From Polyangiales bacterium (lineage in GTDB: Bacteria > Myxococcota_A > Polyangia > Polyangiales > JADJQN01): a DNA stretch of 64,000 bases. The position numbers were made by a program, and so were the translations under genes. The notes beneath the pieces are model-generated. The model did no database searches, had not been told where the DNA came from, and saw only the letters and a list, made by a program, of their open reading frames with translations. The stretch lies in the NCBI GenBank assembly GCA_964202905.1, contig CAXNJO010000006.1:192001-256000 (forward strand). The letters run 5' to 3'. Numbering within the stretch: the first letter of the stretch is position 1; every line of letters starts with the position of its first letter. This document shows, piece after piece, positions 29,680 through 61,305 of this stretch.

Positions 29680-29688
29680 GGTGAGCGC

Positions 29689-31513: not shown

Positions 31514-31530
31514 GTTCTTGTTCCCCGAAA

Positions 31531-31580: not shown

Positions 31581-31600
31581 CAGCTCGGTGATGTGGTGGG

Positions 31601-31747
31601 TCAGCCCGCCTTTCCGAAGATGACGTTCTTCGCGATGGCGACGACCACGGCGACGACGACCCCCGCCGCGGCGCGCTGCACTCCGTCGTCCTTGACCAGG
31701 CCGGTGAAGAAGTTGCCGTTGTTCTCGGTGCTCTCGTTCGCGTTCAT
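31601..31747 (-). CDS. 48-aa hydrophobic peptide (below ORF-track cutoff)
   Basis: AAGGAG RBS; MNANESTENNGNFFTGLVKDDGVQRAAAGVVVAVVVAIAKNVIFGKAG*. Confidence 0.7.
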   Translation of the reverse strand: MNANESTENNGNFFTGLVKDDGVQRAAAGVVVAVVVAIAKNVIFGKAG

Positions 31748-31825
31748 GATGGAGTTCTCCTTGAGGTTGAACGCCGGCCAACACGGCTCGGGTTCATGTT
31801 CCTGATAGGAGAATCCGCCCCGTTT

Positions 31826-32551: not shown

Positions 32552-32611
32552 GTTGTCGCGCCGAGCCTATCGCAAAGAAGCGGCGGTTCGCCGCACGCTT
32601 CAGTGCGTCGC

Positions 32612-33752: not shown

Positions 33753-34076
33753 GGGGATCCTCCTTTGGGTGAACGAGGCGGGTCCGCCTCACCCTCCTGA
33801 TAGGAAGAACGTCGTTCGCTTTGCGCCGTCGGACCGGCCTCGGGCCTCCACGGAGATCGCCATCGGCCCCGCGTCCGTTCAGGGCCTCCAGGCGCCCCGA
33901 GTCCACCCAGCCGGGCGCCCCCCGTCAGTCGGGGCCCGCCCGCTGCGTCATCACGACATCCCCGGCGAAACGGGCCTGCCGGCGTAGACGTCCGACCGCG
34001 CCCGCCATACCCTCGCGACGCCGAACTTGAACATCAACATGGAGCCCGGGCCTCGCCGGCCAGCACGCACCCCAAG

Positions 34077-37586
<3,510 letters not shown>

Positions 37587-37611
37587 GACGAGACCGGCCC
37601 AGGACAGATCC

Positions 37612-40536
<2,925 letters not shown>

Positions 40537-40585
40537 GGAGCGCCTCGATGACCACCCGCCTCGTCTCGATCGATAGGGGGACCCT

Positions 40586-43346: not shown

Positions 43347-43529
43347 CGATGATGCGAGGTGACATCACGGTCTTCGCGTCGCCCGGTGCTGCCGCGGTGC
43401 TGCACGGCCGGGCCCGCCGACCGTCCGGCGCCGGTGACTCGTCCTGCGCGGGGTGGCGCGTGGTCGTTCACCGCTGGAACTCGCGGTGGGCCGACCCGGC
43501 CGTCGGGCGCTCGGCTGGAGCATCCGCCC

Positions 43530-44975: not shown

Positions 44976-45568
44976 GGCGTTGCGAGGCGGCCACCAAGAG
45001 CGGGAAGAGGTGCCTGAACCGGCCGAGCGATGGAGTTCGGTTCTGTCCGAAGCACATGGGCCGGCTCGACCCGAAGCAGGCGACGTGGGTCGTGGGCGGT
45101 GCTGCTGTGGGGCACGCCATCGTGCCCGTGGTCGGCGGCATGATCGGCGCCGGCGTGGGATGGATCGCTGACAAGTTGACGATGGAGGCGAGAATGGCGC
45201 GCAAGAGAGTGTTCGTGAGCTTCGACTTCGACAACGACCGAGCCCTGAAGGAGTTCATCGTCGGTCAGGCGAAGCTCGCCGACTCGCCGTTCGAGATCGT
45301 CGACTGCTCGCTCAAGGAGGCCGCGCCGATGAAGACGTGGGAGGAGAAAGCGCGGCGGGCCATCGAGGGTTCGGACATCGTGCTTGTCATGGTGGGTGCC
45401 AGCACCCACAAGGCGAGCGGCGTGCTCAAGGAGGTCGCGATGGCCCGAGCGGCGGGCATCCCGCTCGTTCAGATCATCGGATACAAGGACGGCACCTACA
45501 CGGCGGTGAAGGACGCGGGTCGGCTCTACGCGTGGAACTGGGACAACCTGAAGAAGCTGCTCGGCTAG
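44972..45568 (+). CDS. thsB: Thoeris ThsB-like TIR protein with N-terminal CCCH finger and glycine-zipper segment
   Basis: GTGA overlap with thsA; TIR RVFVSFDFDND..DCSLKEA..GVLKEVAMA; internal ATG at 45194 with GGAGG RBS. Confidence 0.8.
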   Translation: MRRCEAATKSGKRCLNRPSDGVRFCPKHMGRLDPKQATWVVGGAAVGHAIVPVVGGMIGAGVGWIADKLTMEARMARKRVFVSFDFDNDRALKEFIVGQAKLADSPFEIVDCSLKEAAPMKTWEEKARRAIEGSDIVLVMVGASTHKASGVLKEVAMARAAGIPLVQIIGYKDGTYTAVKDAGRLYAWNWDNLKKLLG

Positions 45569-45604
45569 CCGCAAGTGCGGTCCTGCCACCGAGGCGGCCG
45601 GCGT

Positions 45605-46021
45605 CTACGGGAGGGCGCCGACGACGATCTCCTCGAGCCGCTCCGCGGTGTCGGCGACGAGGTCGAAGAGGGCGGCGCTCTGGGTGACCCCGGGCGCGAT
45701 GATCGCGATCGCCATCTTGGTGATGCCGCGCCCGATGAGGACCTGCTGCGTCACGGCGTGCTCACGCTCGCCGCCGATCAACGTGACGCCGTCGTGCGCA
45801 GGGACCGAGCTCTCCAGGGACGGCAGCGGGTGGGGAACGGCGGCGATATCGCCGGCGTAGGCGACCACCTCCTCGTGCCCGAGGATCCAGAGCACGACGA
45901 GCCGGGCGTCGGCCTCGCGCTCGAGGCGACGCAGTTCCTTCCGCAGACGGTGCTCCGTGCGGACGTCGATACGCCGCAGCAACCAGATGGCGGTGCCGGG
46001 GACGTCGTAGCTCGAGGTCAC
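45605..46021 (-). CDS. Putative Roadblock/LC7 (MglB-like) fold protein
   Basis: Helix-beta-beta pattern RLEREADARLVVLWIL..VVAYAG, C-terminal amphipathic helix; start uncertain. Confidence 0.45.
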   Translation of the reverse strand: MTSSYDVPGTAIWLLRRIDVRTEHRLRKELRRLEREADARLVVLWILGHEEVVAYAGDIAAVPHPLPSLESSVPAHDGVTLIGGEREHAVTQQVLIGRGITKMAIAIIAPGVTQSAALFDLVADTAERLEEIVVGALP

Positions 46022-46204
46022 GCCGGCCCCGGGTGCGATGCCGGCCGGGCGTGCGGTGCCGGCAGCAGCTGCATCGCGAGAGGATGTGCCGCTGGCTGGG
46101 TGCGAGCTGCGTCGTCGGTCCGGCGTTCTCCGAGACGGGGCGGGCGAGAATGGTACGTCCGCAGCCGCCCGTCCCCGCAACTGCCTTCCAGAGGGCCGCA
46201 TGCC

Positions 46205-46590
46205 GCGTCGGAGGCCCACTTTGGTGCTGAGCCGAGATCGCTCGTACCAATGTATCGAGGGGGTTGTGAGGGCTTCTGCTCTGGAGCCCCTGGAAAGACG
46301 GCCTCAAGAGGGCTCGTGCATGAGGCATGGCCCTGGGGATCGGCTCCAGGCATGCGCGACGTGGATGATGCCGACGGCACATGGCCATCGGCGCCCAGCG
46401 AGACTTCGGTCGGCGGGGTGGCTCCGGCGAGGATTCCCCGCCGGAGCCCATCGACAGGTCGTTCCCCATCGAGCCCGCGACTTGCCAAATCGCGGGAACC
46501 CCTCGCCACCTCACTGACAGCAGCAACCGCCACACAAGGCGCCAAGGACGCCTCAAGTACGGCCGCCACCGGACCGCCAGCCTCCGACGC
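46205..46590 (-). ncRNA. Candidate structured ncRNA downstream of the RT
   Basis: 11-bp closing inverted repeat (46205-46215 / 46580-46590) enclosing at least five hairpins; strand inferred, not certain. Confidence 0.4.
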
Positions 46591-46721
46591 CGCCCGACGG
46601 TCCAGCCAGGAGGGGCCTTTGGCCCCGCCCATATGGACCGCCCTACGGCGCATGAAGAGCGTGCGGGTGATCGCGACCGACTTGGCACTGACGGCCGCGA
46701 AACTCTGGTCCAGGAAGGCCA

Positions 46722-48041
46722 TCACAGCGCCCCCCGAACGATAGGATCCGCGAAGGCCTGGAACTTCGAGATCCAGGTCGTTCGCAGGTTCAACTTCACA
46801 TGGACAGCCGCCTCATCCACTGCGTGGAGGTGGCCCCGGCTGATCGCGCCGGCGGCCTCGCGAAGATCGTCGAGGCGAGACGCTGGATCCAGGGACAGCC
46901 GGAGCACGGCGTCTACGAAGCGGCTCCACAGCCGGCGGTTGCACGGGTCGGTGTCCCGCAGTCGCTCGATGACGGTGTCGAAGTTCTCGCCCGATAGACG
47001 GACGCCGCCGTGCCCGATGTCGTAGCCGAGGAAGTTGATGTTCGCGCCGCGAAGGTCGATCGGCTCCGGGCTCGTCTTAGCCGGGTCCGGGTGCAGGGCG
47101 AGGCCAGTGCGGCTCGCGAGGTCGTGAAGAAGTTGAAGTCCCTCGGCGGCACCAGCGCGCTCGCGGGCAAGGACGAGCAGGTCGTCGGCGTAGCGAAGGA
47201 GGATTGCCCGAGTGCCCATGGCGAGAGCGAAGGGGGCGTCGAAGATCACGTAGCCGACGATGTTGCTGAGCACTGGGGCGATCGACGAGCCCTGGTACAA
47301 GGCGAGCAGAGGCTCAGCGCGCACACCAACCTCGCCGGACACAACGCGCCGATGGTCTGGCCGTCGCACAATCGGCGCAGACATCCGCGCCGCGATGATC
47401 GTCATCATGGCGTCGTCGACCGGGAGCACCACGGGCAGCGAGGCGGCGACGTGGTTGATGGTGATGGACGGGAAGTAGTTGCGGACGTCTGCCCGTGCAG
47501 CCCACACGAATCCGCGGCGCAGCAGCGCCTTCGCCATGAAGAGCCCGGCATGAACGCCGTCGACGCAGCGGTAGGCCAGGATGGTGTGCGGCAGGATCTG
47601 CTCGGCGTGGAGGCTGAGTACCAACAGGATCAAGGTCTGCACGAACCGCTCGAGGAACGGGTGCAGGAAGACCTCGCGCTTCTCGTCGACCATCACGCCC
47701 AGGACGGGCGAAGGACAGGCGCGGCTCTTGGTCGCTGCGTAGGTGTGGTCATGCGCAGCGTCGAAGAACTTCGAGCCTGCCGCCCGCCGGACTGAGCCGG
47801 GTGCGAGACGAGCTCCGGGCGGGATCACGATCCTCCGGCCGTCGCGCCCCTTGCGCGTGGTCTCGACCACCGGCAGGTCACAGCTCGAGGCGAACGCCTC
47901 GTCACCGACGAGCGTGACGACGACGTTCCCGTCGGCGTCACGGAGGCTGCTCGGCACAAGGACGTCGCGGTTCACACGGGCGACGGCGTCGGGGAAGCGC
48001 TCTCGGCGGAAGAGCCCCTTGCTCGATGCAAGCTGGCTCAC
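46722..48041 (-). CDS. Stand-alone reverse transcriptase (group II intron-like core, about 439 aa)
   Basis: GGAGG + GTG 48041; ERFVQ, LAYR, ADVRNYFPSI, LYQGSSIAPVLSNI, LRYADDLLV, INFLGYDI. Confidence 0.9.
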   Translation of the reverse strand: MSQLASSKGLFRRERFPDAVARVNRDVLVPSSLRDADGNVVVTLVGDEAFASSCDLPVVETTRKGRDGRRIVIPPGARLAPGSVRRAAGSKFFDAAHDHTYAATKSRACPSPVLGVMVDEKREVFLHPFLERFVQTLILLVLSLHAEQILPHTILAYRCVDGVHAGLFMAKALLRRGFVWAARADVRNYFPSITINHVAASLPVVLPVDDAMMTIIAARMSAPIVRRPDHRRVVSGEVGVRAEPLLALYQGSSIAPVLSNIVGYVIFDAPFALAMGTRAILLRYADDLLVLARERAGAAEGLQLLHDLASRTGLALHPDPAKTSPEPIDLRGANINFLGYDIGHGGVRLSGENFDTVIERLRDTDPCNRRLWSRFVDAVLRLSLDPASRLDDLREAAGAISRGHLHAVDEAAVHVKLNLRTTWISKFQAFADPIVRGAL

Positions 48042-48205
48042 GGGCGCCTCCGTGCGCGCTGCTGGTCTCGCGCACCAGCGACGAGCAGGCGGACAATCGC
48101 GGCGGACCGCGAGCGCAGCGTCGGGTCCGCACGGAGCATCCGGCGCAGCAGTCGGTCGAGCTCGACCGGGATGCAGACCGACACCTTGACGTACGAGCGG
48201 GTCAC
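48038..48205 (-). CDS. Ribbon-helix-helix protein (55 aa) coupled to the RT
   Basis: YVKVSVCIPVELDRLL..SRSAAIVRLL; its stop overlaps the RT start (GTGA). Confidence 0.75.
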   Translation of the reverse strand: MTRSYVKVSVCIPVELDRLLRRMLRADPTLRSRSAAIVRLLVAGARDQQRARRRP

Positions 48206-48212
48206 GGACGTC

Positions 48213-48241
48213 TCTATGACGCTCGTCCGAAAGACTGTCAA
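48213..48241 (-). promoter_or_regulatory. Sigma70-like promoter for the RHH-RT operon
   Basis: Perfect TTGACA (48241-48236), 17-bp spacer, weak -10 CATAGA; -35 overlapped by inverted repeat GACTG-N7-CAGTC. Confidence 0.5.
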
Positions 48242-48302
48242 TCCCAGTCCGACTTCTTCGGAGGGATTCCGCTCGCACCGCGTTTGCGCTAGGCTCCGCG
48301 TC

Positions 48303-49037
48303 GTGAGCTGGGTGAAGCAGGAACTCGTGCATGTACGAGAGCTCGTGGATGGCGGGCTCTTTAGGAGCCAGTCGGAGGCGATCCGGGAGCTGCGAAAAGC
48401 GGGGGTTCCGCTGGTCGGACCCGTCTTCGCGAGGGAGGAACTGCACCGAGTCCTGCGCGCGGCGAAGCCCACAGAAAGTGTTTCGGACGAGCATGACCCC
48501 GTCGCGGTAGTCGCTCGTCGCTTGGAGAACTTTCAGATCGGCATCACCGACGTCACGCGCGGCAAGGCCCCGCTGGTTCGGCTCACCGCCGACCCGCCCC
48601 GCTTCGTGATCGACATCCTGAACGTGCCGGGGAAGCCGCTCCGCATCGGCCTCGGCGATGCCCGGCCATGGGCCCGTGTGTACGCCGCCAAGACGAGGCG
48701 ACGCGGCGTCGCGCAGTTCAGCGCGAACGGGTTCCTCGAACCGAACGCCGCCGCCGTCTTCTTCTTTGTACTCGTGGACGAGGGGCAGGTGTGGATGCTT
48801 CGTCGCGAGGATCTCGTGCAGCTCGATCACGAGGTGCGCTCCGTCCCGAAGGGGCAACGAGCGATCAAGGCGGCTGAGACCGGGATGGCCAAACACGGAG
48901 ACGAGCCGGGTTCCATGCGGCTGTGGTTTCCGCGAGGCGAGTCTCGGGATCTCTTTCATCCGGCGGAGCGGATCGCCAACGAGCACATGTGCCTCCAACA
49001 CGACGGTGTCTGGGTGGTTGCGAGGGAATCCACATGA
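48303..49037 (+). CDS. Hypothetical protein with N-terminal DNA-binding-like motif
   Basis: VRELVDGGLFRSQSEAIRE resembles RHH helices; ATGA overlap with the next gene; start uncertain. Confidence 0.6.
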   Translation: MSWVKQELVHVRELVDGGLFRSQSEAIRELRKAGVPLVGPVFAREELHRVLRAAKPTESVSDEHDPVAVVARRLENFQIGITDVTRGKAPLVRLTADPPRFVIDILNVPGKPLRIGLGDARPWARVYAAKTRRRGVAQFSANGFLEPNAAAVFFFVLVDEGQVWMLRREDLVQLDHEVRSVPKGQRAIKAAETGMAKHGDEPGSMRLWFPRGESRDLFHPAERIANEHMCLQHDGVWVVAREST

Positions 49038-49417
49038 CGGAGGCCGAGCGAATCACCTCGGCGCATCGCGGGGGGACGCTGTTCCTCTCCCGTGGCGGCG
49101 TGACGCTCAGCAAGTCGATCTCCGCGGACGACCCGGCCGGCGCGATCGTAGACGCCGCCCGCATGCTCGACGTCCTCTCGCCCACGCGGCACCTGACGCC
49201 GGTCCGGCTCATCGTCGGCATGGGCAACGCCTCGGCGCAGTTCGATGCGACGTGGCGGGCTGACGAGACCCTCGGGACGCTCGACGTCGTGCGTCGTGGC
49301 TACTTCGCTCCGAAGCTCGTGCGGACGGAGAACGGCGAGCTGACGCCTCCGATCCGCAACCTCATCGAGCGCATCGCTGACCTCATCCTCGGCGCCTCAC
49401 CTTCGCGTACGATCTGA
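49034..49417 (+). CDS. Hypothetical protein coupled to the integrase
   Basis: GAGGG RBS; TGATG overlap with the integrase start. Confidence 0.6.
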   Translation: MTEAERITSAHRGGTLFLSRGGVTLSKSISADDPAGAIVDAARMLDVLSPTRHLTPVRLIVGMGNASAQFDATWRADETLGTLDVVRRGYFAPKLVRTENGELTPPIRNLIERIADLILGASPSRTI

Positions 49418-51084
49418 TGGCGGTGCGTAAGAACCAGAGCGAGCCCCGGCGGTGGGCGATCTACGCACGCAAGAGTACCGACGAGCAGCTGGCGTCGACC
49501 GAGACACAGATCCGCGAAGCTCGTGCGGCGATCGAACGACGCGGTGGGGTCGTCGCGGACGAGCACATCTTCATCGACGACGCGAAGTCCCGCGCCGAGT
49601 TCAAGAACCGGCCTGCGCTCTGGAAGATGATGGCCGGCGCCTCGGCGTCGGAGTTCGAGGCGCTGATGGTGCGCGACGAGACGCGGCTCGGCGGGGACAT
49701 GCATCGCACCGGCCTCTTGATGCAGGACCTGCTCGAGGCCGGCGTCAGGTTGTTCTTCTACAGCACCGGCGAGGAGGTGCTGCTCGACAACCCGACGCAG
49801 AAGCTCATCGCCACCATCAAGAACTACGGCAGCGAGATCGAGAGGGAGCGCGTGTCCTCGCGCGTGTACGAGCACCTCAAGGGCAAGGCGGAGCGACGCT
49901 GCAATCCCGGTGGCGCCGTGTTCGGCTACACGAACCGGCAGGTTCATGGTGTCGGCGCAGACGGGCGACCGGTGAAGGTGCGCACGGAGTACGAGGTGAA
50001 CGTCGTCGAGGCCGCCGTCGTCGTGCGCATGTTCACGCTGTACGCCGAGGGGAGAGGCCTTCGGTCGATCGCGAGGACGCTCAACGCGGACGGAGTGCCG
50101 TCGCCGCGAGCAGGCCGGCGCGGAACGGGGTCGTGGAGCCCTTCGACGGTGCGCTCGATGCTCACGAACCAGCGGTACCGCGGCTTCGTCCCGTGGAACA
50201 AGACCCAGAAGACGTACAAGGGCGGCACGAAGGTGCGCATCGAGCGCGACCCGGACGAGTGGATGCTCGTGCCCGCACCTGAGCTGCGGATCGTGAGCGA
50301 CGAGCTCTTCGTCGCAGCGGCAGCCCGCCGGCCTGGTCGTGCCCTGGCCAGCGGTGGCAAGCGTGTCGGACGCCCGCCTCAGTTCCTGCTGAGCGGGATC
50401 GCTCGCTGCGGGCAGTGCTCCGGCTCCATCCAGATCGTGCACACCAAGGACGGGCACGAGACCGTGCGCGCTTACGCGTGCAGCTACCACCGCAACCGAG
50501 GGCCCGAGGCGTGCTCGAACGGCCGCCGCCGTCCGATGACCACCGTCGACAGCGCCGTGACCAACTTCCTGATGAACGAGATCACCCACCACGGGCTGCT
50601 CGAGGAGATCATGGACGTGATCAAGCGTCGCCTCGTCGCCCGCCACGAGAAGCCCGGGCGTCGCGACCGGGCCACGCTGGAGGCCGACGGCGAGCAGCTC
50701 CGAGCGGAGATCGCCCGCCTGACCGATGTGCTCACGGTTGCGGGGTCGGCGGCGGAGCCGGTGCTCGAGGGGATCCGTCAGCGGCAAGTGCGCTTGGCGG
50801 CTGTCACGGTCGAGCTCGCTGCGTTGCCCGTGGTGAAGGGCGCGGACGTGATCTCCCTTGAGCTCAAGCGCGCCGAGCGGGAGGCGAAGCAGAACCTCGC
50901 CTCGATGGCGGAGCACATGAAGGCCGACACCGCCGCCGCACGGGCCGTCGTCGCCGGGCTCTTCCCGGATGGCATCCGGGCCTCACCGACCGAAGACGAC
51001 GACGGGCGCCCCCGCTGGCGCCTGGCGGCGCGCGGGCCGTCTTCGGGCCGGCGTCTTTCACGGACGCCGGAGTCACAAATGTAG
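49417..51084 (+). CDS. Large serine recombinase/integrase of island 1 (probable 1-nt indel near 51035)
   Basis: AIYARKSTD, RDETRLG, recombinase domain, LLSGIARCGQC..YAC..C zinc ribbon, coiled coil; ends at the att core. Confidence 0.93.
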   Translation: MAVRKNQSEPRRWAIYARKSTDEQLASTETQIREARAAIERRGGVVADEHIFIDDAKSRAEFKNRPALWKMMAGASASEFEALMVRDETRLGGDMHRTGLLMQDLLEAGVRLFFYSTGEEVLLDNPTQKLIATIKNYGSEIERERVSSRVYEHLKGKAERRCNPGGAVFGYTNRQVHGVGADGRPVKVRTEYEVNVVEAAVVVRMFTLYAEGRGLRSIARTLNADGVPSPRAGRRGTGSWSPSTVRSMLTNQRYRGFVPWNKTQKTYKGGTKVRIERDPDEWMLVPAPELRIVSDELFVAAAARRPGRALASGGKRVGRPPQFLLSGIARCGQCSGSIQIVHTKDGHETVRAYACSYHRNRGPEACSNGRRRPMTTVDSAVTNFLMNEITHHGLLEEIMDVIKRRLVARHEKPGRRDRATLEADGEQLRAEIARLTDVLTVAGSAAEPVLEGIRQRQVRLAAVTVELAALPVVKGADVISLELKRAEREAKQNLASMAEHMKADTAAARAVVAGLFPDGIRASPTEDDDGRPRWRLAARGPSSGRRLSRTPESQM

Positions 51085-51090
51085 CGTCCC
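51079..51090. other. Internal att junction between islands 1 and 2
   Basis: atgtagcgtccc identical to 61144-61155. Confidence 0.85.
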
Positions 51091-51328
51091 TAAGCTCTCC
51101 GAGTTGGAACCAAATCGCCGCCTGGGTGGGCGAACTCGAACAGCTGCGGCAGATCGTGAATGCGGCCGCGTAGCGCCGGATCGTGTTGCTCTCGGTAGCG
51201 CCGTGGGCTCCATCCCCAAGGGATTGGAACCAGGGGGGAGAGACAGAAGCGAAGGGGCAAAGGACACGAGAACAAAGGTCCGCCGAACAACTCCAACCAC
51301 GGCGCGCGTCAGGGCGTAGGCTGAGTGC

Positions 51329-51582
51329 GTGGCGAACCGCTCAACAGAGATCGGACGGATCATGCGCGCCGGCGACACCATCCTCGCCCGCCAGATGATC
51401 CGCCGCGCGATCGAAGCGAGCCGCGGGAACTACGTGCGACCGCGCGCCTCCTCGGCGTCAGCAACGACACGGTCGAGCGACTCGTGCTCCGGCTCGCGCT
51501 TGAGAACGATCTCGATGCGGCTCGCCGCGAGGCTGCTTGGTGGCGGTACTCGCCGCGGAGCCAGGCGCGTCTACTCGAGTAG
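51329..51582 (+). CDS. Fis-like HTH protein (apparent frameshift near 51437)
   Basis: MIRRAIEASRGNYV in one frame continues as ATARLLGVSNDTVERLV in another. Confidence 0.6.
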
Positions 51583-51584
51583 AC
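51569..51584. promoter_or_regulatory. Perfect palindrome GTCTACTCGAGTAGAC, copy 1
   Basis: Identical copy at 54967-54982. Confidence 0.7.
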
Positions 51585-51710
51585 ACACTCCGCATGCACG
51601 CGCCCGAGATTCCCGCCGCGGCAATCTACGAAGCGCCGCATAGCCGAGCCAGGGTTCCCTTCGCGCCCGGCGCGGCCCACCTCGAAACCACTTCGCGGTA
51701 CCCTACGGCG

Positions 51711-52520
51711 ATGCGATCTCGTACGAAGTCACCCGCTCCACGTCGCTCCACCGGCGCTCCCAAAGTGTTCTCCACGGACGAGTACGAGATCGCGCGGCGC
51801 GCCTACTTGGAGCACGGCACGATCGAGGCGGTCGCCCGCGCTCTTGCCTGTGACCGTCGCGGCGCCGCGCGACTTGTCGATGCTGGGGAGCCTGCGCTCC
51901 ACCTCCCGTCCCTGAGGGACGCGGCGCGCATCTACGCGTCCACCGTGACCGCGGTCGTTGGCAGGGCCGAGAGTGCGACGAGGACCGAGGAGAGCGCTCA
52001 GCTCGTCCTCACCCTCGAAGCGCGAGCCAAGGCGGCAAAGCAGGCGAGGAAGCACGAGGAGCAAGTTCTCGGCGACGCGACCAAATCGAGAGCGGACGAG
52101 GTGCGCCTCGTGAGGGCGAATCGGATCTCCGCCCTCGTGCTCGCCCAGGTGAACGCGGACCTCCTCAAGCTAAGCACGGGGCTGGCTCGTTCTCTGCTCG
52201 CCGACGAGGAGACGCTGACGAAGCTCAGCGCGGAGAAGCGGCTGGGGATCCTCCGGACCGTAGCGGGCATCGTTCAGCGAACGGCGGACGCGTCGAGGAT
52301 CTCGGTCAACATGGAGCGCCTACTCCTGGGTGAGCCTACCGCCATCCTCGGGAGGGACGGGCCGTCGACGGCCGAGATGAGCGTCGACGAGGCGGAGCAG
52401 TGGCTTGGGATCGCGAACCGCGCCTTCCAACGCAGAGCCGCGCGCCAGGCGCCGATCGAGACCGACAGCGCGCCCGTTCAATCCGACGAGGATGCGGACC
52501 TCACGGAGGCGCTGGGCTGA
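51711..52520 (+). CDS. HTH-containing helical protein, possibly phage small-terminase-like
   Basis: N-terminal HTH (YLEHGTIEAVARALAC); ERLLLGEPT motif; acidic tail. Confidence 0.55.
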   Translation: MRSRTKSPAPRRSTGAPKVFSTDEYEIARRAYLEHGTIEAVARALACDRRGAARLVDAGEPALHLPSLRDAARIYASTVTAVVGRAESATRTEESAQLVLTLEARAKAAKQARKHEEQVLGDATKSRADEVRLVRANRISALVLAQVNADLLKLSTGLARSLLADEETLTKLSAEKRLGILRTVAGIVQRTADASRISVNMERLLLGEPTAILGRDGPSTAEMSVDEAEQWLGIANRAFQRRAARQAPIETDSAPVQSDEDADLTEALG

Positions 52521-52557
52521 GCTGCCTCGAACCCGACCGCAGCGTAGGATGGCGCCC

Positions 52558-53178
52558 ATGGCCAAGGCTCGCACCGACGTGCCGCGCGCGACGAGCGACA
52601 ACCTGCTCCATGCGAGCCGTCACACATGTTGCCGCTGTCACGAGCCGCGGCTCCCGGTCGAGATCCACCACATCAACGGTGATCCCAGCGACCATCGTCC
52701 GCCGAACCTCGCGGTCCTTTGCCGGAACTGCCACGGGCTCGTCACGGCGAAGGGCTCGCTCGGCCGCTCGATCTCGCCCGGCGAGGTGAAACGCAGCAAG
52801 GCCGAGTGGGAGGCAGCGTGCGCGGCGGACGCCGACGAGATCGACGAGCCCGAAGAAGAAGCCCACGACATCGTGCGCGTACCGTCCGGCGGCTGGCACG
52901 AGTGGATCTACCAGCTGCCGGAGGGATACCGGCTCGTCGTCGGTTTCGATTCGGACGTGGCGCTGAACGCGCGCATCGCGCGGCAGAGCGACTACCGCCG
53001 GTGGTGCGCGGACGACCCGGATGCGGTGTGCGAGGTGTTCGAAGAGGAAATCTACGCGGGCGAGTTGGAGCACGCGGCAGACCGCGACAACCGCTACGTC
53101 TTCTGGCTGGAGAACGACGACGACGAGGACGCGATCGTCGAGGTAGACATCGCGGTGTGGGCACCGGCAGGCGAGTGA
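52558..53178 (+). CDS. HNH endonuclease with acidic beta-rich C-terminal domain
   Basis: CCRC..EIHHINGD..NLAVLCRNCH. Confidence 0.85.
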   Translation: MAKARTDVPRATSDNLLHASRHTCCRCHEPRLPVEIHHINGDPSDHRPPNLAVLCRNCHGLVTAKGSLGRSISPGEVKRSKAEWEAACAADADEIDEPEEEAHDIVRVPSGGWHEWIYQLPEGYRLVVGFDSDVALNARIARQSDYRRWCADDPDAVCEVFEEEIYAGELEHAADRDNRYVFWLENDDDEDAIVEVDIAVWAPAGE

Positions 53179-53212
53179 ACGCCATGCGCAGCGGTGGGAC
53201 GCCGAGCCCTCT

Positions 53213-53835
53213 TCAGCGCGTGACTCGGCTCGCCCGGTCGTAGTCCCGCAGGGTCGCCGCCGCGCGGTCGCATGCGCCGACGTTCTCAGCGCACGTCACG
53301 CAGAGCGCTACGTCGCCGCCCGCGCCGCGAAGGAGCAGCGTGTGGAACTGCCGGACGTCCGCGAGTTCCTCTGCGCGCGCCTCCGCGGCGTGAACCCGCG
53401 TGAGCAGTTCGCGCATCCGGTCGCCGCATGCGCGGAGCCGTTCGAGGTCGTCTGTGCGCCGCAGGCTCTCCAGGGCCCGTCCCGCGCGCACGAGCTCGCC
53501 GAACTCGCGCCGAAGTTCAGCGCGGCTAACCACGGCGTTGCGCTCGCGCGCGGCGCTGCGCTGCAGCATCCTCGGGCGGGCTGTTATCGAGCGCTCCGGA
53601 GTTCGCGCCGCTGATGGTGGACGGTGTGGTTGGCTTCGATGCGGTCGCAGGCGCCAGCTTCGGGGCCGAGCGAGTCGAGGACGACGCGCCGCGGTCGAAG
53701 ATACTCGCGAGCATCTCGAGCCCGCAGCACGCCTCCGAACGCGACTACGAAGAGCAGCGCGCAGCCACCCCAGACGATCACTCCGAAGCGCCCGACGCGG
53801 CGCCCGCTTCGCTGAACCTCGTTGAAGTACGACAC
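53213..53835 (-). CDS. Membrane-anchored hypothetical protein (possible frameshift)
   Basis: TM segment in frame of ORF 53584..53943; Cys-containing helical C-terminus in frame of ORF 53213..53875. Confidence 0.4.
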
Positions 53836-53837
53836 GA

Positions 53838-54603
53838 CTAGGCCGGCGTGAGGCGGACACCGATCGCGTGTCCACACGTCGTGCGCGTTAGCGCGCGGAT
53901 GGCTCCGACGCGCACGGAGACGGTGGCCGGGCTCGTCATGCATCCCACATCAACGCTGACGGCGAACACGTGTCTGCCGATGCACGTGGCGCCGCTCCGC
54001 GTCACGCCGCCGCCAGAGCCTCCCGTGCAGGACACGAGTCCACCGCTGCAGGTCACGCGGACCTCGACGACGCTGTCCGCGTCGCTCTCCCAGGCGAAGA
54101 CGCGGACGCCTCCGGCGAATCCGACTGTGCCGGGTCCTGCCGAGATCCAGTCCGCCGTGTCGGCGTCGCTCCACGTCATCGGGTAGGACGTCTCCGGCCA
54201 GCCCGCGCCGATCGCTGCGACCGCCGCAGTCTCGGGCGTGTCGTTGCTCTCGAAGACGTCAGCGACGCAGCCCGCGTCGGCCAGAGGGCCGAGGTCAGGC
54301 GGCGACGATGGACCGGCGTCCGTAGCGGAGAAGCCAGCATCGACGAGCGTAGGGCCCGCGTCGGTCCAGGAACCGGCGTCTATGGTCGAACCAGCGTCGT
54401 CGAAGAATCCGCCGTCGCGATCACGGCCGATGTCGGTCCGATCGCCGGCGTCGACGATGCTCGCCGCGTCCGCGCTGGCGTCGAGCGCCGGTCCCGCGTC
54501 GTCCGACGGGGTGGCGTCCGCGGGGGTCGAGCAGCCGAGCGTTTGAACCAAGAGACTGGTGACGAGCGCGAGCACGACCAAGCGGGGAGTGTGTCGGTCC
54601 ATG
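53838..54603 (-). CDS. Putative lipoprotein with DAG repeats and D.FE.ND motif
   Basis: Lipobox TLGC; DAG linker; DVFESNDT; Cys-rich domain. Confidence 0.75.
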
Positions 54604-54666
54604 CGTCGGAGCATACCCGGCCTATAAGGCGTGTTACCAGCCGACGCAGGTGCCTAGGGTCTCGGC

Positions 54667-54897
54667 GTGCCACGCCGCCCGCCGCCCCGCCTTCGAGACC
54701 GCCTCGCGGCCGCGGTGAAGCGCCTCCGCGCCGCGCGCAGCCTGACGCAGGAAGGGCTCGCCGAGGCTGCCGATCTCAACGCGCGACACCTCCAGAAGAT
54801 CGAAGTCGGAGCGATGAACGTGACGCTCGACACCCTGGAGAAGCTCGGCGGCGCTCTCGATGTCGACCCCGCCACGTTGATCGCCCGCGATCCGTAG
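54667..54897 (+). CDS. XRE-family HTH regulator
   Basis: RLRAARSLTQEGLAE..HLQKIEVG..NVTLDTLEKL. Confidence 0.9.
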   Translation: MPRRPPPRLRDRLAAAVKRLRAARSLTQEGLAEAADLNARHLQKIEVGAMNVTLDTLEKLGGALDVDPATLIARDP

Positions 54898-54965
54898 CCC
54901 TCCGGCGAACCCGGTTGGCCGTGAAGCGTCCCCGCACTGACTGACACCAGCCGCCGAGATCGGAA

Positions 54966-54983
54966 TGTCTACTCGAGTAGACA
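54966..54983. promoter_or_regulatory. Perfect 18-bp palindrome TGTCTACTCGAGTAGACA, copy 2
   Basis: Core identical to 51569-51584. Confidence 0.7.
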
Positions 54984-55219
54984 GTGTCCTCGGGACGGTT
55001 TCGAGAGCCCCGTCGTACACAGCGGGAGCCCGCCGTGTACGAGCCCCGTTCTCTGGGAGCGGGAACGCGATCGCTTCGCGATGTCGAGCGCGGCGTTTCG
55101 ACCGTGCCCGCTTCCAGGGACAGCACGGGCGATGTTGCCCCGGACGCGAGCGGCATGGCGGGGCGCGATGCCCCCGCCGCGTCTGGTCGCGTGTGCTCGT
55201 GGAGGCGTGATCGCCAGAG

Positions 55220-58069
55220 CTACGGCACCTTGCGACCCTTCGGCTTCTTGCTCTTCTTGGCGGAAGGAGCGCCGCCTCCGAGAACAAGCTGCGCGCTCGT
55301 CAGGGTTCTGTAGAGCGCGAACAAGTACTCGACGCGCTCGCGGTCACTCGTGAACTTCGCCCCGCGGTAACACTTCTCGACGGCCTTATCGAGCGCCGCG
55401 TGTGCTTTCACGAGACGCGCGGGCATCGCGAGCGGGTCATAGAGTTCAGCGAGTGTGCTGCTCGGAAAGGCCGCTCGCGCGTCGAGAACCTCCTGCGAGC
55501 AGGCTCCGACCTTGGCGCGCTTCGCGGCGTCGACCTCGGTTGGCCACGGGAAGTTGTTGTAGACGATCCCCACGGAGTACCGATAGCGCGATTCGAGGCG
55601 CCCGCAGACGGTACGCACCCACGCCATGTGCATCGTCGACGTGAGAACGCCGAACTCGTAGAGCGAAGCGTTTGCCAGGACGTACACTTGGTTGGAGGGA
55701 ACGACGGAGGGAGGGAGATACGCGATCGGGATGAACCGCCGCAGCTCCAGCGATGTCGTCGGTATTGCGAGGAAACTGCTGGTCGGCTGCCGGATCTCCG
55801 CGAATCGAGCGGGGGTCTTCGCGAGTTCTTGAGTCGTCTCTCGACCGCGCTTCGCACGCCAGTCACGCACCGCTTTCACGCGCTTGTTGACCGCCGTGAG
55901 CTTGGCCAGATCGCCCGGCGGGGCGTCGACGAGCCAAAGACACCAGCGGTCAATGTTGTGAAGCAGCTCATTGCCTCCGATGAAGCGCCGAATGTACTTA
56001 GCCGCGGCTGGGCTCTCCGCGAGGATGCTGGCGCGATCCTCGGCGTCGAGTGTGTAGTGCCCACCGTCCAGCGCGAAGGAGCCGTACTTGAGTGTCGGCG
56101 CGCGCCCGATCGGTGTCCCTCGGTCGTGTAAGAGGACCGGAGGGCCCTCAACGAGATACTCGTTGATCTCCTTCACGCGGACGTGCCGCGACGCCTCCTC
56201 CTTCGGATCGTCGTAGTCGTAGAGCGTCGGCTTGTCCGCGGGCTCGAACCGTCCGAAGCCGATGATCACGCAGTGTACGTGCGCCTTGCCCCGAGCTTCG
56301 CTCGCCCAGGTGAATGACCTATGCGCGAACTGGATGCGAAGCCCGTCGCCGAACAGCTTCTCGAAGAGGACGCCGGGCTGTTCGCCTTGGGTGATGCTGC
56401 TCGTCGACACGAACGCCACCCGAATCTGCGAACCTCGGATGTAGTCCAGCGCCTTCGCGTACCAGGCGGACACGTAGTCAAGGATGCCGGAGCCCTTCAA
56501 CGGCTTGCCTTTCACGTCAGCGAAGATCGCCGTCAGCTCGGCCTTCTGCTCCTTCGTTTGTTCCTTCTTCCCGACGAAGGGTGGGTTGCCCAGGACAAAC
56601 ACCGAGTTGGATGGCGGCAGGACGGTGCGCCAGTCCGTTCGAAGTGCGTTGGCGTTTCGGATCGTGGGCGTCGCCCTCAAGGGCAGCCGCTTTCCAGGCA
56701 GACCGAATGCCTCGCCCAGCAGACGATTGGCCTGGTGATCGGCGAGCCAGAGGCCGACCTCGGCGATCCGGCAAGGCCACTCGTTGAGTTCGATGCCGTA
56801 GAACTGATCGACGTCCACCTTGCTCAGCTCGCGGACGTCCAAGAACAACGTCTGCGGTTCGTCCTGACGAAGCGCCACGAGCATCTCCTGCTCGATTCGA
56901 CGGAGTTCTCGATACGCGAGGATGAGGAAGTTGCCGCAGCCGCACGCGGGATCGAAGACGCGAATCTGTCGCAGCTTCGCGTGGAACTCCTTCAGGCGCG
57001 CGGCGCGTCGCGTCGATCGATCCTCTTTCAGAGCCGCCAGCTCCTTCTCCAGGTCGTCCAGGAACAGACTGCGGAGCACCTTCAACACGTCCCGTTCGGA
57101 CGTGTAGTGCGCGCCGATTTGTCGTCGCTCCGGCCCGTCGAGGATGTCTTGGAAGAGGCTGCCGAAGACCGCCGGCGAAATACGCGCCCAGTGGAAGTAC
57201 GCACACTGGAGCAGCTTCTCGCGCTGGGCTGACGTGAACGCCGCGGTTGGGAGGGAGCCCTTGAACAGCGCACCGTTCACGTACTCGAACGCGGCGAGGT
57301 CCTCGTCGAGGTTGCGCTGACGGTCTTGGTGGTCCTGGTCGAGTACCTCGAACAACTGCCCGAGGTACATGCCGAGGTCGCTGCCGTCGGGGTTAGTCCG
57401 TTCGAGAAGCTCAGTGAACTGTCGAGGCTCGAAGATGAACGTGTCTTCGGCGAACAGGCAGAATAGGACCCGGACGAGGAAGCGCTCCAAGGCGGCGCCC
57501 GCGTAGCCCGCGTCCTTGAGTGAATCGTGAAGCTCGCAGAGCAGCGCCGTCGCTTCGAAGTTCGCTGGATCTTCCGGGTCGACCTTTTTCGGCTTGTCGC
57601 CTTTGATGAACGCGAACTGCCGGATTTCCTCGTGGAGCTTCCCGAGTGGGATCTCGCTGTACCGGTACTCCTCGTTCGGCCTTGGGTCGTCCGGCTCGAG
57701 GTCGTAGATGCCGAACCGCGTGAAGTCGGAAACGACGACGTAGCGCGGCATTTCCGCCTGCCGGCCCTCGCGCAGCAAGTCACGTAGGTAGTCGAACGCC
57801 TGAAGCTCTGCCTTGTCGAGCGACTGCCCAGCCGATTTGTGCTCGACGAGAAGCACAGACGGCCAGAACAGATCCAGGCGGCCGTACTTGCCGCGGACGT
57901 TCTTGAGAGGGTGCTCGAACGACGCGACTGTCCTCCGCCTCATTCCAAAGATCAGGAAGAACTCGTTCCAGAAGGTCTGCTTGTCCGCATCCTCCTTCTT
58001 CGCGTCTGCCCACTCATGTGAGAATTCCAGCGCGCGGTGTCGGATCTCGTTCCAGTTGATGGTGGTCAT
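55220..58069 (-). CDS. MmeI-family Type IIL restriction-modification enzyme
   Basis: TFWNEFF, RLDLFW..VEHKS, FGSLFQ, GAHYTS, DPACGCGNFL, GNPPF, RYRYS..YNNFPWP, TLAELYDPLAMP. Confidence 0.93.
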   Translation of the reverse strand: MTTINWNEIRHRALEFSHEWADAKKEDADKQTFWNEFFLIFGMRRRTVASFEHPLKNVRGKYGRLDLFWPSVLLVEHKSAGQSLDKAELQAFDYLRDLLREGRQAEMPRYVVVSDFTRFGIYDLEPDDPRPNEEYRYSEIPLGKLHEEIRQFAFIKGDKPKKVDPEDPANFEATALLCELHDSLKDAGYAGAALERFLVRVLFCLFAEDTFIFEPRQFTELLERTNPDGSDLGMYLGQLFEVLDQDHQDRQRNLDEDLAAFEYVNGALFKGSLPTAAFTSAQREKLLQCAYFHWARISPAVFGSLFQDILDGPERRQIGAHYTSERDVLKVLRSLFLDDLEKELAALKEDRSTRRAARLKEFHAKLRQIRVFDPACGCGNFLILAYRELRRIEQEMLVALRQDEPQTLFLDVRELSKVDVDQFYGIELNEWPCRIAEVGLWLADHQANRLLGEAFGLPGKRLPLRATPTIRNANALRTDWRTVLPPSNSVFVLGNPPFVGKKEQTKEQKAELTAIFADVKGKPLKGSGILDYVSAWYAKALDYIRGSQIRVAFVSTSSITQGEQPGVLFEKLFGDGLRIQFAHRSFTWASEARGKAHVHCVIIGFGRFEPADKPTLYDYDDPKEEASRHVRVKEINEYLVEGPPVLLHDRGTPIGRAPTLKYGSFALDGGHYTLDAEDRASILAESPAAAKYIRRFIGGNELLHNIDRWCLWLVDAPPGDLAKLTAVNKRVKAVRDWRAKRGRETTQELAKTPARFAEIRQPTSSFLAIPTTSLELRRFIPIAYLPPSVVPSNQVYVLANASLYEFGVLTSTMHMAWVRTVCGRLESRYRYSVGIVYNNFPWPTEVDAAKRAKVGACSQEVLDARAAFPSSTLAELYDPLAMPARLVKAHAALDKAVEKCYRGAKFTSDRERVEYLFALYRTLTSAQLVLGGGAPSAKKSKKPKGRKVP

Positions 58070-58282
58070 GGTGCGGGGGCGCCAGGCTACCACGGTCGTT
58101 CCGCGTGGAGCGCCGTCGCACGCCCGGTCATTCGAGGCCCGGAGAGTCAGCATGTGCGGCGTATCGGACGGGACGGCCGACGGTTGTGCTCGGGTAGGGG
58201 GGTGGGCGAAAGCTCCGTGCGTGAGCACGGTTCGCGGCCGCTTCTCCCCCCGCGCGACTTTCGGGTGGCCCCCACAGTTCAT

Positions 58283-58302
58283 ATGGTATACACGTATACC
58301 AT
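58283..58302. promoter_or_regulatory. AT-rich inverted repeat overlapping the resolvase start (res/operator candidate)
   Basis: ATGGTATAC-AC-GTATACCAT. Confidence 0.6.
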
Positions 58303-59041
58303 GCGACGCACTGCGACGACTCCTGCGAACGAACGATCGGTGGCCGGCTACGTGCGCGTCAGCACGGACAAGCAGGCAGACGGTGGCGGAAGCCTCGAAG
58401 CGCAGCGTGAGAAGCTTGAGCTGTTCGCCCGCCTTCACGACCTCGTGCTCGTCGAGGTCTTCGTCGACGCGGGCGCGAGCGCGAAGAGCCTGGACCGTCC
58501 AGCGCTTGACCAGGCGCGGGCGGCGCTTCGCTCCGGACGCGCGAGCGGGCTGTTGGTGACCAAGCTCGATCGCCTCACCCGGAGCGTCCGCGATCTCGAC
58601 GCGCTGGTGACCGAGCACTTCGCGAGCGGTCGATCGTCGCTCATCTCTATCGGTGAGAACGTCGACACGCGTTCCGCCGCGGGCCGGCTCGTCTTGAATG
58701 TGCTCACGTCAGTCGCGCAGTGGGAGCGCGAGGCCATCGGCGAGCGCACGTCATTCGTGATGCGGTCGAAGCAGGCGCGGGGCGAGTTCATTGGTGGGCA
58801 ACCGCCGTTCGGATTCCGCCTCGACGCTCAGGGGGACCTCGTGCCCAACCCCGAGGAGCAGCGGACGATCGACCGCGTGATTCAGCTGCGCGCCTCGGGG
58901 CTCTCGCTCGCAGCCGTCGCACTCACTGCGAACGCAGAGGGGCACGTCGGACGGAGCGGACGCCACCTCGCCAAGACGCAGATCGCGCGCATCGTTCGGA
59001 GCGCGGGGCACGGGAGCCGAGCCCTCGCGGAGGCAGCATGA
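58301..59041 (+). CDS. Small serine recombinase (resolvase/invertase)
   Basis: GYVRVSTDKQ, VTKLDRLTRS, QWEREAIGERT, PPFGF. Confidence 0.92.
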   Translation: MRRTATTPANERSVAGYVRVSTDKQADGGGSLEAQREKLELFARLHDLVLVEVFVDAGASAKSLDRPALDQARAALRSGRASGLLVTKLDRLTRSVRDLDALVTEHFASGRSSLISIGENVDTRSAAGRLVLNVLTSVAQWEREAIGERTSFVMRSKQARGEFIGGQPPFGFRLDAQGDLVPNPEEQRTIDRVIQLRASGLSLAAVALTANAEGHVGRSGRHLAKTQIARIVRSAGHGSRALAEAA

Positions 59042-59232
59042 GCGACAGCACGAAGCAGGTGGCCTTTCGACTTCCGACGGACCTACTCGATCGCGTGGAG
59101 GCGTACCGAGCAAGGCGAATCGAGGCAGCGCCGGACCTCGACCTCTCGCTGACGAAGACGGTGCGAATGCTGCTTGAGGCCGGGCTCGGGGCCGTCGAGA
59201 AGCCGGCCGGGAAACGCCCGCGCGGCCGTTGA
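59038..59232 (+). CDS. Ribbon-helix-helix protein
   Basis: GGAGG RBS; KQVAFRLPTDLLDRVEAY..TVRMLLEAGL; ATGA overlap. Confidence 0.8.
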   Translation: MSDSTKQVAFRLPTDLLDRVEAYRARRIEAAPDLDLSLTKTVRMLLEAGLGAVEKPAGKRPRGR

Positions 59233-59316
59233 CCGCCCACTCCGCGCGCTCCCGTTCAACTCGGTGAGTGCGGGCTCAACGCAGGTGCGCGGCATGATGA
59301 GTTCAGGAGCGACCCC

Positions 59317-59643
59317 ATGAACCCGAACGACCCCCGACCTCTCCCCTCCGAGCACGACGAAGTGCCCGAGGACGCTCTCGCGGCCAGCCAACAAACCCTC
59401 GAAGCTCTCGGCGACGTGGCGATCACGCTCTTCCTTCGCGAGCGCGGAATCAAGGCGCGCAAGCGCCGAAGAACGTTACCGACGCAGCCGCGGTCCGACG
59501 CCGCCGACATCCTTCCGGAACGGTCGCCGCTCGCTGCCCCGCCGGTCGACTCCTCGGCGACTTCCGGCAGGGGCTCGGCGGGCATTCGCGCACGGGTTCG
59601 GCGCCGGACCGTCGAAGGCAGCGACGCGGACGGTGCCCCGTGA
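59317..59643 (+). CDS. Hypothetical protein coupled to the integrase
   Basis: AGGAG RBS; GTGA overlap with the integrase. Confidence 0.5.
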   Translation: MNPNDPRPLPSEHDEVPEDALAASQQTLEALGDVAITLFLRERGIKARKRRRTLPTQPRSDAADILPERSPLAAPPVDSSATSGRGSAGIRARVRRRTVEGSDADGAP

Positions 59644-61187
59644 AGACGCTGCCAGGGAACGACGGCACCAGGCTCCGCGCTCTGATCTACGCCAGAGTTT
59701 CGACGAAGGAGCAGGTCGAAAACCAGAGCCTCGACACCCAGGAACGGCTCTGCCACCAACTCTGCGAGAGGGAAGGATTCGAGGTCTTCGAGGTCTTCCG
59801 TGAGGAAGGGGAGTCCGCGAAGACTGCGAAGCGCACGCAGTTCCAGCGCTTGTTGTCCGTCGCGGCGAAGCGCTCGAACAGAATCCGCTTCGTCGTCTTC
59901 TACGCCCTGGATCGATTCATGCGGAACGCTGCGGAGTTTCACGCCATCCGTGGTCTCCTGACGACCTATGGCGTGAACGTCCGCTACGTCATGCAGCCGA
60001 CGGACGACAGTCCAACAGGACGGTTCACCGAGGGGATCTCCGCGCTCGTCGCGCAGCTCGACAACGAGGTCAAGGGAGCTCGCACCCGCGATGGACTCCG
60101 CGAAACCGCTCGGTTGGGACGGTGGGTTTCTAAGCCGCCGATCGGCTATCTCGGCGGTGCTCGACGGGGAGCAGGGCCGAGCCTCGTGCTGGATCCTGTC
60201 CGCGCGCCTTTCATCCGCCGTGCGTTCGAGCTGCTCGCTGCGGGCCGACACGAGAAGGCCGAGATCCTCGCGAAGGTCACGGCGGAGGGTTTCTGCGATA
60301 CGAAGGGCCGTGCGGTCGCGAAGCAGGCATTCGACAAGCTGCTCCGGAATCCTGTCTATTCGGGGCGCGTCGTGTCGAGGAAGCTCGACGTGGACGTGAC
60401 GGCGGACTTCGAGCCGATCGTTACAGCCGCCGTGTTCGAGACAGCTCAGGGCGTGCTGCAAGGGCGGCGGGTTTCGCCCGACGCGAGGACGCTCGACGAT
60501 CCGCGTCTCCCCCTCCGCCGGTTCGTTCGCTGCGCACACTGCGGAACCCCCGTCACGGGGAGCTTCTCCACGGGACGCGGTGGCACGTACGGCTACTACC
60601 GGTGCCGGCTCTCGGGCTGCGCAGGCTTCAATGCCAGCGCGCCGATCGTTGAGGAGAAGTTCGTTGACCTTCTCCGGTCGCTCGAACCCCGTCGTGAGTA
60701 CCTGCGTGCGTTTGGGAAGGTCGTGCTGGCAGCGTGGCGGCTCCGCCGCGACAGCGCCGCCGACGAGGCGCGGCAACTCGCGGCGACGATTGAACGGCTC
60801 CACGTGAAGAAGCGGCAGATCGTGGACGCCCTGATCGACGGCCGGATCGCGAAGCCCGAGTACGATGAGGCGTTGGCGGAGTCGCAGCGCCAGATCGGCG
60901 CGGCACGAGTCGCGGAGCAGAACGCGCGTAGTCGCGAAGTGAACGTCGACGACTTGCTCGCCTTCGCAGAACGCATCCTCACGGACGTCGCCGCGCTCTG
61001 GCTACGCCTAGACGCTAGGGGACAGCGCGCGCTTCAGCTCGCGGTCTTCCCTCGGGGTGTCAGTTTCGATGGCGAAGTCTTTAGAACCCCTGAAATCGCA
61101 AGCGTTTTCACTCACTTGCGGGTGCTCGCGGGCAGCGCTGAAGATGTAGCGTCCCCAGGGGGATTCGAACCCCCGTTAGCGGCGTGA
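59640..61187 (+). CDS. Large serine recombinase/integrase of island 2
   Basis: IYARVSTKEQ, LDRFMRN, LRNPVYSG, CAHC..YYRC..C; last codons are antisense to tRNA-Glu. Confidence 0.94.
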   Translation: MKTLPGNDGTRLRALIYARVSTKEQVENQSLDTQERLCHQLCEREGFEVFEVFREEGESAKTAKRTQFQRLLSVAAKRSNRIRFVVFYALDRFMRNAAEFHAIRGLLTTYGVNVRYVMQPTDDSPTGRFTEGISALVAQLDNEVKGARTRDGLRETARLGRWVSKPPIGYLGGARRGAGPSLVLDPVRAPFIRRAFELLAAGRHEKAEILAKVTAEGFCDTKGRAVAKQAFDKLLRNPVYSGRVVSRKLDVDVTADFEPIVTAAVFETAQGVLQGRRVSPDARTLDDPRLPLRRFVRCAHCGTPVTGSFSTGRGGTYGYYRCRLSGCAGFNASAPIVEEKFVDLLRSLEPRREYLRAFGKVVLAAWRLRRDSAADEARQLAATIERLHVKKRQIVDALIDGRIAKPEYDEALAESQRQIGAARVAEQNARSREVNVDDLLAFAERILTDVAALWLRLDARGQRALQLAVFPRGVSFDGEVFRTPEIASVFTHLRVLAGSAEDVASPGGFEPPLAA

Positions 61188-61222
61188 AAAGCCGCGGTCC
61201 TGGGCCTCTAGACGATGGGGAC
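61147..61222 (-). tRNA. tRNA-Glu(TTC), integration target; encoded end is CTA rather than CCA
   Basis: gtccccatcgtctagaggcccaggaccgcggcttttcacgccgctaacgggggttcgaatccccctggggacgcta. Confidence 0.95.
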
Positions 61223-61230: not shown

Positions 61231-61305
61231 TGGTGAGCCGTGCCGGGATTGAACCGGCGACCGTCGGGTTAAAAGCCCGCTGCTCTGCCACTGAGCTAAC
61301 GGCTC
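61231..61305 (-). tRNA. tRNA-Lys(TTT)
   Basis: gagccgttagctcagtggcagagcagcgggcttttaacccgacggtcgccggttcaatcccggcacggctcacca. Confidence 0.95.

Follow-up and report, generated by a model that had tools for sequence, protein, structure and literature searches.

In phage large serine integrases such as Bxb1, phiC31 and LI/A118, the attachment (att) sites lie outside the int gene. The two integrases considered here, int1 and int2, have the att core within the last codons of their own genes; they belong to two tandem islands at a tRNA-Glu gene in a 64,000-nucleotide stretch of a Polyangiales genome (contig CAXNJO010000006.1, positions 192,001 to 256,000; hereafter the window). Recombination sites lying inside a gene have been described before (all papers are cited here from excerpts, to which our statements about them refer). 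DsiB, the ssrA-specific serine integrase of Dehalococcoides islands, always overlaps att at its 3′-end, and its authors proposed that it is fully functional only on the circle or with the 3′ fragment of a neighbour (McMurdie, 2011, PMC3146451). In streptococcal integrative and conjugative elements (ICEs) at rumA, attR lies in the serine integrase gene, and the C-termini of the excised and integrated forms differ, for which a functional difference has been proposed (PMC4701971). In myxophage Mx8, attP is inside int and IntP acquires a new C-terminus on integration, 13 residues replacing 112, with altered activity (PMC4701971, PMC6070905, PMC4383910). In mycobacteriophage BPs, attP is located in the repressor gene and integration strips a C-terminal proteolysis tag; the level of the BPs integrase is set by host proteases such as ClpXP, and the integrase tag is kept in both states (PMC3694055). 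The SSV-family suicidal integrases of archaea also have the recombination site inside the integrase open reading frame (ORF) (PMC7253208). Placement of att inside a serine integrase gene and borrowing of tails are already published (DsiB; rumA ICEs). The 2014 Islander paper states that no serine integrase was then known to have a tRNA gene as its target.

Attachment cores in the integrase genes

Two tandem islands stand at the 3′-end of tRNA-Glu in the window, and each encodes a large serine integrase that targets tRNA genes. Their junctions, integrases and tails are:

22668..22679, + strand: left junction between host flank and island 1; antisense copy of the original tRNA-Glu 3′-end with encoded CCA; GCGTCCC core at 22670-22676
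22670..22726, + strand, stop at 22724-22726: stranded circle (attP) tail of int1, ASPVGTETFVTRKLALVV
22670..51083: island 1, 28.4 kb, a defence island (IetAS, HmaABC, ThsA and a TIR-domain ORF, reverse transcriptase, RadC, DUF932)
49417..51084, + strand: int1, large serine integrase (PF00239, PF07508, PF13408); as assembled, out of frame about 55 nt before the core
51079..51090, + strand: middle junction between the int1 end and island 2, ATGTAGCGTCCC
51084..51173, + strand, stop at 51171-51173: stranded circle (attP) tail of int2, ASLSSPSWNQIAAWVGELEQLRQIVNAAA
51084..61148: island 2, 10.1 kb (HNH-domain ORF, helix-turn-helix ORF, MmeI-like type IIG restriction-modification gene, small resolvase, small ribbon-helix-helix (RHH)-like ORF, int2)
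59640..61187, + strand: int2, intact large serine integrase; integrated form ends PGGFEPPLAA, read antisense off the tRNA
61149..61222, − strand: tRNA-Glu(TTC), the target; 3′-end now CTA instead of encoded CCA

GCGTCCC occurs 15 times on the + strand of the window, and only three copies (22670, 51084 and 61149) run on into tRNA-end sequence that they share; the first and third have GCGTCCCCAG in common, the second and third ATGTAGCGTCCC. GC content drops between 23 and 61 kb (mostly 0.62-0.71, compared with 0.74-0.82), in agreement with the island bounds. An earlier sequence-only reading of this DNA had placed the att core inside both integrase genes, with exchange of their tails, and had translated three of these tails. 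The three junction copies bear out the first claim, and all three tails translate as it gave them, integrated int2 ending in EDVASPGGFEPPLAA antisense to tRNA-Glu(TTC).

Both proteins are large serine recombinases, although neither matches the other by tblastn. PF00239 is found in both, and Y17, R19 and S21 of the catalytic YxRxS motif are invariant in 45 rows of the int2 family. The Recombinase domain, zinc ribbon and coiled coil are represented by PF07508, PF13408 and a homologue model that matches serine integrase structures at E 3e-20. As read from the DNA, each integrase gene has the crossover core among its final codons, past all folded domains. With the core so placed, the sequence gives the circle form a tail coded by the element and the integrated form about ten residues from antisense reading of the tRNA, while an inner integrase that has been displaced takes the tail of the newer element beside it. 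At the sequence level, the C-terminus of the integrase is thus determined by its recombination state and by the order of stacking. The int2 circle tail is in the family frame of int1, so that it is also the tail that int1 would borrow.

The stop of int1 at 51084, which could have spoken against this layout, is not conserved, since an orthologue reads through and the window carries two extra bases. This orthologue (P0122, 82% identical, in the same-genus genome G001) adjoins tRNA-Glu and runs through the core via VTNVAS into the tRNA; the G001 contig stops short of the far end of its island. Named int1 homologues come from Sandaracinaceae and Polyangium, which makes a myxobacterial host probable.

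51025..51035, + strand: int1 frameshift zone, two extra bases compared with two orthologues

The sequence-only reading had restored the frame by adding one missing base near 51035. The effect on the frame, which yields the TNVAS of the family, was right, and the count was not, the alignment giving two surplus bases. The shift is probably an assembly error, because rpoB and rpoC are also frameshifted, each lying in three frames in the same assembly (G000 C10:24721-32949). HmaB (near 39527) and the DUF932 gene (near 32790) are split on island 1, and HmaC probably is as well. A count over 29 non-island genes gave no shifts, which speaks against an assembly error, although the same method missed the int1 shift. 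Given the state of rpoB and rpoC, split genes of this assembly should not be taken as pseudogenes without resequencing.

The two arms of the int2 site share a motif at different distances from the core:

51102..51111, + strand: att-arm motif AGTTGGAACC, conserved at the DNA level, 5 bp further from the core than GATTCGAACC
61162..61171: GATTCGAACC, its counterpart in the tRNA arm (T-arm)

The offset is 18 at 51102 and 13 at 61162, so that the motif of attB stands 5 bp closer to the centre than that of attP, and a 5-bp shift of zinc-ribbon sites between attP and attB has been described (PMC3783163). AGTTGGAACC is a probable zinc-ribbon binding site. No such 5-bp offset was seen in the int1 arm, and a symmetry scan gave no assignment of the crossover dinucleotide.

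Tails of integrated and circular forms in homologues

GxEP-type tails end 81 of 120 int2 homologues and, in the fetched loci, overlap tRNA-Glu, -Ala, -Lys, -Met or -Arg in antisense. Tail ends were tallied in homologues of at least 480 amino acids, leaving out the query itself (110 of 120 for the int1 family, 114 of 120 for the int2 family). Ala-Ala (AA) closes 1/42 GxEP-type tRNA tails in the int1 family and 0/80 in the int2 family (1/122 in total), the single case being the same-genus int1 orthologue. For tRNA tails in other frames the counts are 1/20 and 1/10, and both of these rows (P0197, P0055) were misfiled by the pattern. Non-tRNA tails, a residual class that takes in junk ends, have AA in 24/48 of the int1 family and 4/24 of the int2 family (28/72), and the background in likely host genes is 26/1276. 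On this tally, an AA end is thus much commoner in circle tails than in tRNA tails or in host genes, and this holds for two families with otherwise unrelated tails. The last codons of a tRNA tail are the anticodon-stem strand and its stop is the anticodon loop; LAA arises from antisense reading of tRNA-Glu in 3/16 cases in the window genome and its relatives. Since AA closes so few GxEP tRNA tails and so many non-tRNA tails, the LAA of integrated int2 is best read as an accident of the tRNA allele.

The int2 circle tail belongs to a large WN-x4-WL..LR-x-AA family, and upstream core copies in independent loci are followed by in-frame W-N-x4-W-L tails, several of them AA-ended. A DNA pattern for the att arm was built from codons 1-15 only, so that no AA was included, and run on 50 genomes picked from 79 loci with an int2 relative; it gave 123 matches in 39/50 genomes, against 12 for the reversed control. 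In the whole genome that holds the window, the tail at 51084 is the sole match to the att-arm pattern. In all, 103 distinct matches were fetched (30 loci automatically, the others chosen by eye, one of them viral). The frame closes in 100 of the 103, at exactly 26 amino acids in 65; 49 end in AA and 67 in A, and the other frames of the same matches end in AA in 2/153. There is no in-frame integrase upstream of 97, which fits stranded att arms.

Within 58 non-redundant 26-amino-acid tails, codons 8-10 (AGT TGG AAC) are fixed at the DNA level. Over codons 16-26, the ratio of non-synonymous to synonymous polymorphism (pN/pS) is 0.51 in the tail frame, compared with 1.4-1.5 in the other frames and 1.0 beyond the stop, and both terminal alanines use all four codons. 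This is the pattern of protein-level, coding selection on int2-family circle tails. Tails of the int1 family vary in length, sequence and frame, and have only the AA or VA end in common; in G024, which belongs to another family of the same order, the far junction of a related island ends in TSPGGSETFVERKLRFIA, a homologue of the int1 circle tail. The survey of homologues for conserved tails that the sequence-only reading had called for thus found both circle tails conserved.

Viral-contig integrases without an overlapping tRNA have AA in 5/8 cases (L179, L180, L185, L188, L191). A viral scan with int2 alone as query gave no match, and a third homologue search, aimed at tailed integrases, gave 6 proteins. 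In AlphaFold models of two tailed homologues found in nature, confidence is high as far as the junction; the tail extends past the folded core with a per-residue confidence score (pLDDT) below 50, so that the tail swap removes no folded domain. A tail-profile search returned 2861 library matches, nearly all of the best 150 being shorter than 200 amino acids; that 101 of these 150 are AA-ended is circular as regards AA and was not used as evidence. Stranded tails would account for many short hypothetical ORFs.

A possible degradation tag, its alternatives and stacked elements

We slightly favour the view that the circle tail is an ssrA-like tag, which would make the circle integrase short-lived and the integrated integrase stable. 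Its AA end would mark the enzyme for proteolysis of the ClpXP type. When expressed from the circle, the integrase would then have a brief window for integration, with little re-integration after excision; integration would remove the tag, leaving a stable integrase at hand for excision; and stacking would tag the displaced inner integrase and damp it. The host genome has clpX, and its ssrA tag ends in LAA. The family end LRxAA agrees with 4/5 positions of the ClpXP consensus, which is that of E. coli (PMC10862746).

Several points weigh against this proposal. First, a tag needs a terminal AA, but AA does not suffice, as 39% of the tags that have it are weak (PMC10862746), and AA ends only half of the tails; three of the eight non-tRNA viral-contig integrases (L178, L181, L194) have no AA. 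Second, the window illustrates the family rule poorly, because int2 has a terminal AA in either form and LVV closes the int1 circle tail (FIA in G024); a free C-terminal Ala-Ala is present in the circle and tRNA tails of int2, absent from the int1 circle tail, and found in about half of the family circle tails. As the host tRNA allele also gives LAA, the difference between circle and integrated forms may be weak here. Third, conservation in the int2-family tail covers an entire W..WL..LR helix, which exceeds what a degron requires, and the low pLDDT of the tails could stem from their thin alignment. Fourth, Fisher tests for AA enrichment (5e-9, 0.007) are overstated because the homologues are related, the regions of the fetched matches were partly picked by eye, and the pN/pS set is limited to 26-amino-acid tails. 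The circle, transcript and protein forms discussed here are predictions from sequence.

The conserved helix leads to another explanation, unlikely in our view though to be taken seriously, namely that the switch concerns activity or directionality: the circle tail, an amphipathic helix in the int2 family, would dock on the coiled coil or elsewhere on the integrase, which would need it for efficient integration, and the integrated form would be less active or biased toward excision, as in Mx8 (PMC4701971, PMC6070905), with AA being secondary. W9, N10, W15, L16, R17, L22 and R23 are conserved while third positions are free from codon 12 on, a helix is predicted at 500-516 of P0055, and the proposal made for DsiB (PMC3146451) points the same way. 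However, int1-family tails have no common fold or motif except their end, the same helix tail occurs on both integrase families (L346, P0385), no folded domain is lost in the swap, and the DNA-level fixation of S8-W9-N10 is accounted for as an att-arm binding sequence.

Rather less probable is the absence of any switch, in which att would have drifted into the gene end, the circle tail would simply be the usual C-terminus, either untagged or constitutively tagged, and the residues read from the tRNA would be tolerated junk. The free variation of tRNA tails, which use all three frames, the position of both tail types beyond the folded core, and the AA on both int2 forms in the window host would all be expected from this. 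Nevertheless, the overlap of gene and att has been retained across two families and across tRNA-Glu, -Ala, -Lys, -Met and -Arg targets, and loss of a degron at every integration would be a change of state even if unselected. The sequence-only reading had instead inferred a degron in the tRNA-read LAA; that it was selected to destroy the integrated integrase and so stabilise the island is very improbable, for although int2 and the G001 orthologue of int1 end in PPLAA and the host ssrA tag in LAA, AA is nearly absent from GxEP-type tRNA tails, the codons are an anticodon-stem strand that varies with the host allele, one LAA allele (L014) has no integrase match in its 3-kb locus, and it is the circle tail whose AA end is conserved.

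Borrowing of tails between stacked islands, also suggested by the sequence-only reading, occurs in natural stacks. The inner integrase is in frame with the tail of the next element in L350, L339 and L316, and L346 has two full-length int1-type enzymes with int2-type tails, a combination also seen in P0385. Most inner integrases are remnants, which is attributed to age. Selection for their breakage is not claimed, as age suffices and tRNA-adjacent copies in these assemblies are frameshifted too. Cassettes of 0.8-1.5 kb without an integrase lie between tails, with the 26-codon frame kept in 8/10 and the AA end in 2/10. It is conceivable, though doubtful, that each arriving element, including toxin-antitoxin cassettes that have the 26-codon tail and no integrase, gives the displaced integrase a degradation tag, so that stacking order would become protein stability, the newest island would lock the older ones in place, and the array would act like a serine-integrase integron.

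Integron-like cassette arrays were seen at tRNA ends in Acidobacteria-labelled genomes (L354:3856-6543, L358, L359, L341:8619-11295, L356, L387; oriented coordinates), most cassettes holding a toxin-antitoxin-like pair (PIN-, PemK- or HigA-like, by eye). P0247, P0272, P0288 and P0368 are integrases with an internal deletion, fused in frame to the tail, which suggests one route to integrase-less cassettes. At L300:6620-6700 (G327), two att-core copies with tRNA-like arms stand 72 bp apart, possibly a minimal excision scar or an empty cassette.

The remaining features of the islands and their surroundings are:

58301..59041, + strand, start estimated: small serine recombinase of island 2, catalytic domain only (PF00239)
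59038..59232, + strand: 64-amino-acid RHH-like ORF coupled to the resolvase stop; RHH label by eye, no Pfam match
61231..61305, − strand: tRNA-Lys(TTT), upstream neighbour of tRNA-Glu

The small recombinase is likewise AA-ended (ALAEAA) and translationally coupled to the RHH-like ORF, which is a candidate repressor or directionality factor. The cargo of island 1 (22763-48999) is dense in defence genes, among them IetAS, HmaABC, ThsA with the TIR-domain ORF, an AbiGi-like ORF and an unclassified reverse transcriptase; the island shares Hma, DUF932, RadC and the integrase with that of G024. The encoded CCA of tRNA-Glu became CTA on integration of island 2 (61146-61149 versus 22668-22670), and the G001 int1 junction retains CCA. 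An empty site, with the left flank joined to the tRNA, was seen in 0/5 relatives searched, and no sigma-70 promoter was found at 50900-51600. Host DNA left of the islands carries a tandem 34/68-bp repeat at 14494-14697.

Comparison with described systems

In the open-access full-text literature, with subscription journals and supplements outside its scope, we found no AA-ended attP tail of tRNA-targeting serine integrases, and the excerpt of PMC12884075 does not mention tag removal by integration. If the proposed tag is real, a single gene would form a switch in which recombination state sets the half-life of the recombinase, and this switch would occur throughout a large clade of serine integrases that target tRNA genes (judged by record titles, in Myxococcota, Acidobacteriota and other groups). 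Integrases mined from chromosomes bear the tRNA-read tail and not the circle tail, which may alter their activity or level in genome-engineering screens.

The window integrases resemble Bxb1, phiC31 and LI/A118 in domain order, in fold (by fold search) and, for int2, in the 5-bp offset of the arm motif between attP and attB (PMC3783163). Integration splits the SSV gene, whereas the core of the window enzyme stays whole. As in BPs, attP is inside a gene and integration changes a C-terminus; the gene is that of the repressor in BPs and of the integrase here, so that one protein is both recombinase and proposed tagged target. Mx8 shares attP inside int, a C-terminus changed by integration and a myxobacterial host, but its enzyme is a tyrosine recombinase, whereas the window enzymes are serine recombinases that swap 10-30 residues beyond the folded core. 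The rumA ICEs likewise have att in a serine integrase gene and a C-terminus that differs between excised and integrated forms; their target is protein-coding, with reciprocal 3′ exchange, and a tag is not mentioned in the excerpt (PMC4701971).

DsiB is similar in being a large serine recombinase that lies over att at its 3′-end, in stacked islands and with a small companion serine recombinase; the 3′-ends of the window integrases also overlap att, with the stop codon outside the island. The DsiB islands have a six-gene module with DsiA, ParB and Mom; island 2 carries a small resolvase, and ParB and Mom were unmatched among the ORFs scanned. DsiB differs in targeting tmRNA (ssrA), whereas the target in the window is tRNA-Glu and tmRNA is on another contig. 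DsiB tails are divergent, with no conserved tail or degron noted in the excerpt (PMC3146451), and the tails described here offer a concrete test of the 2011 speculation on DsiB.

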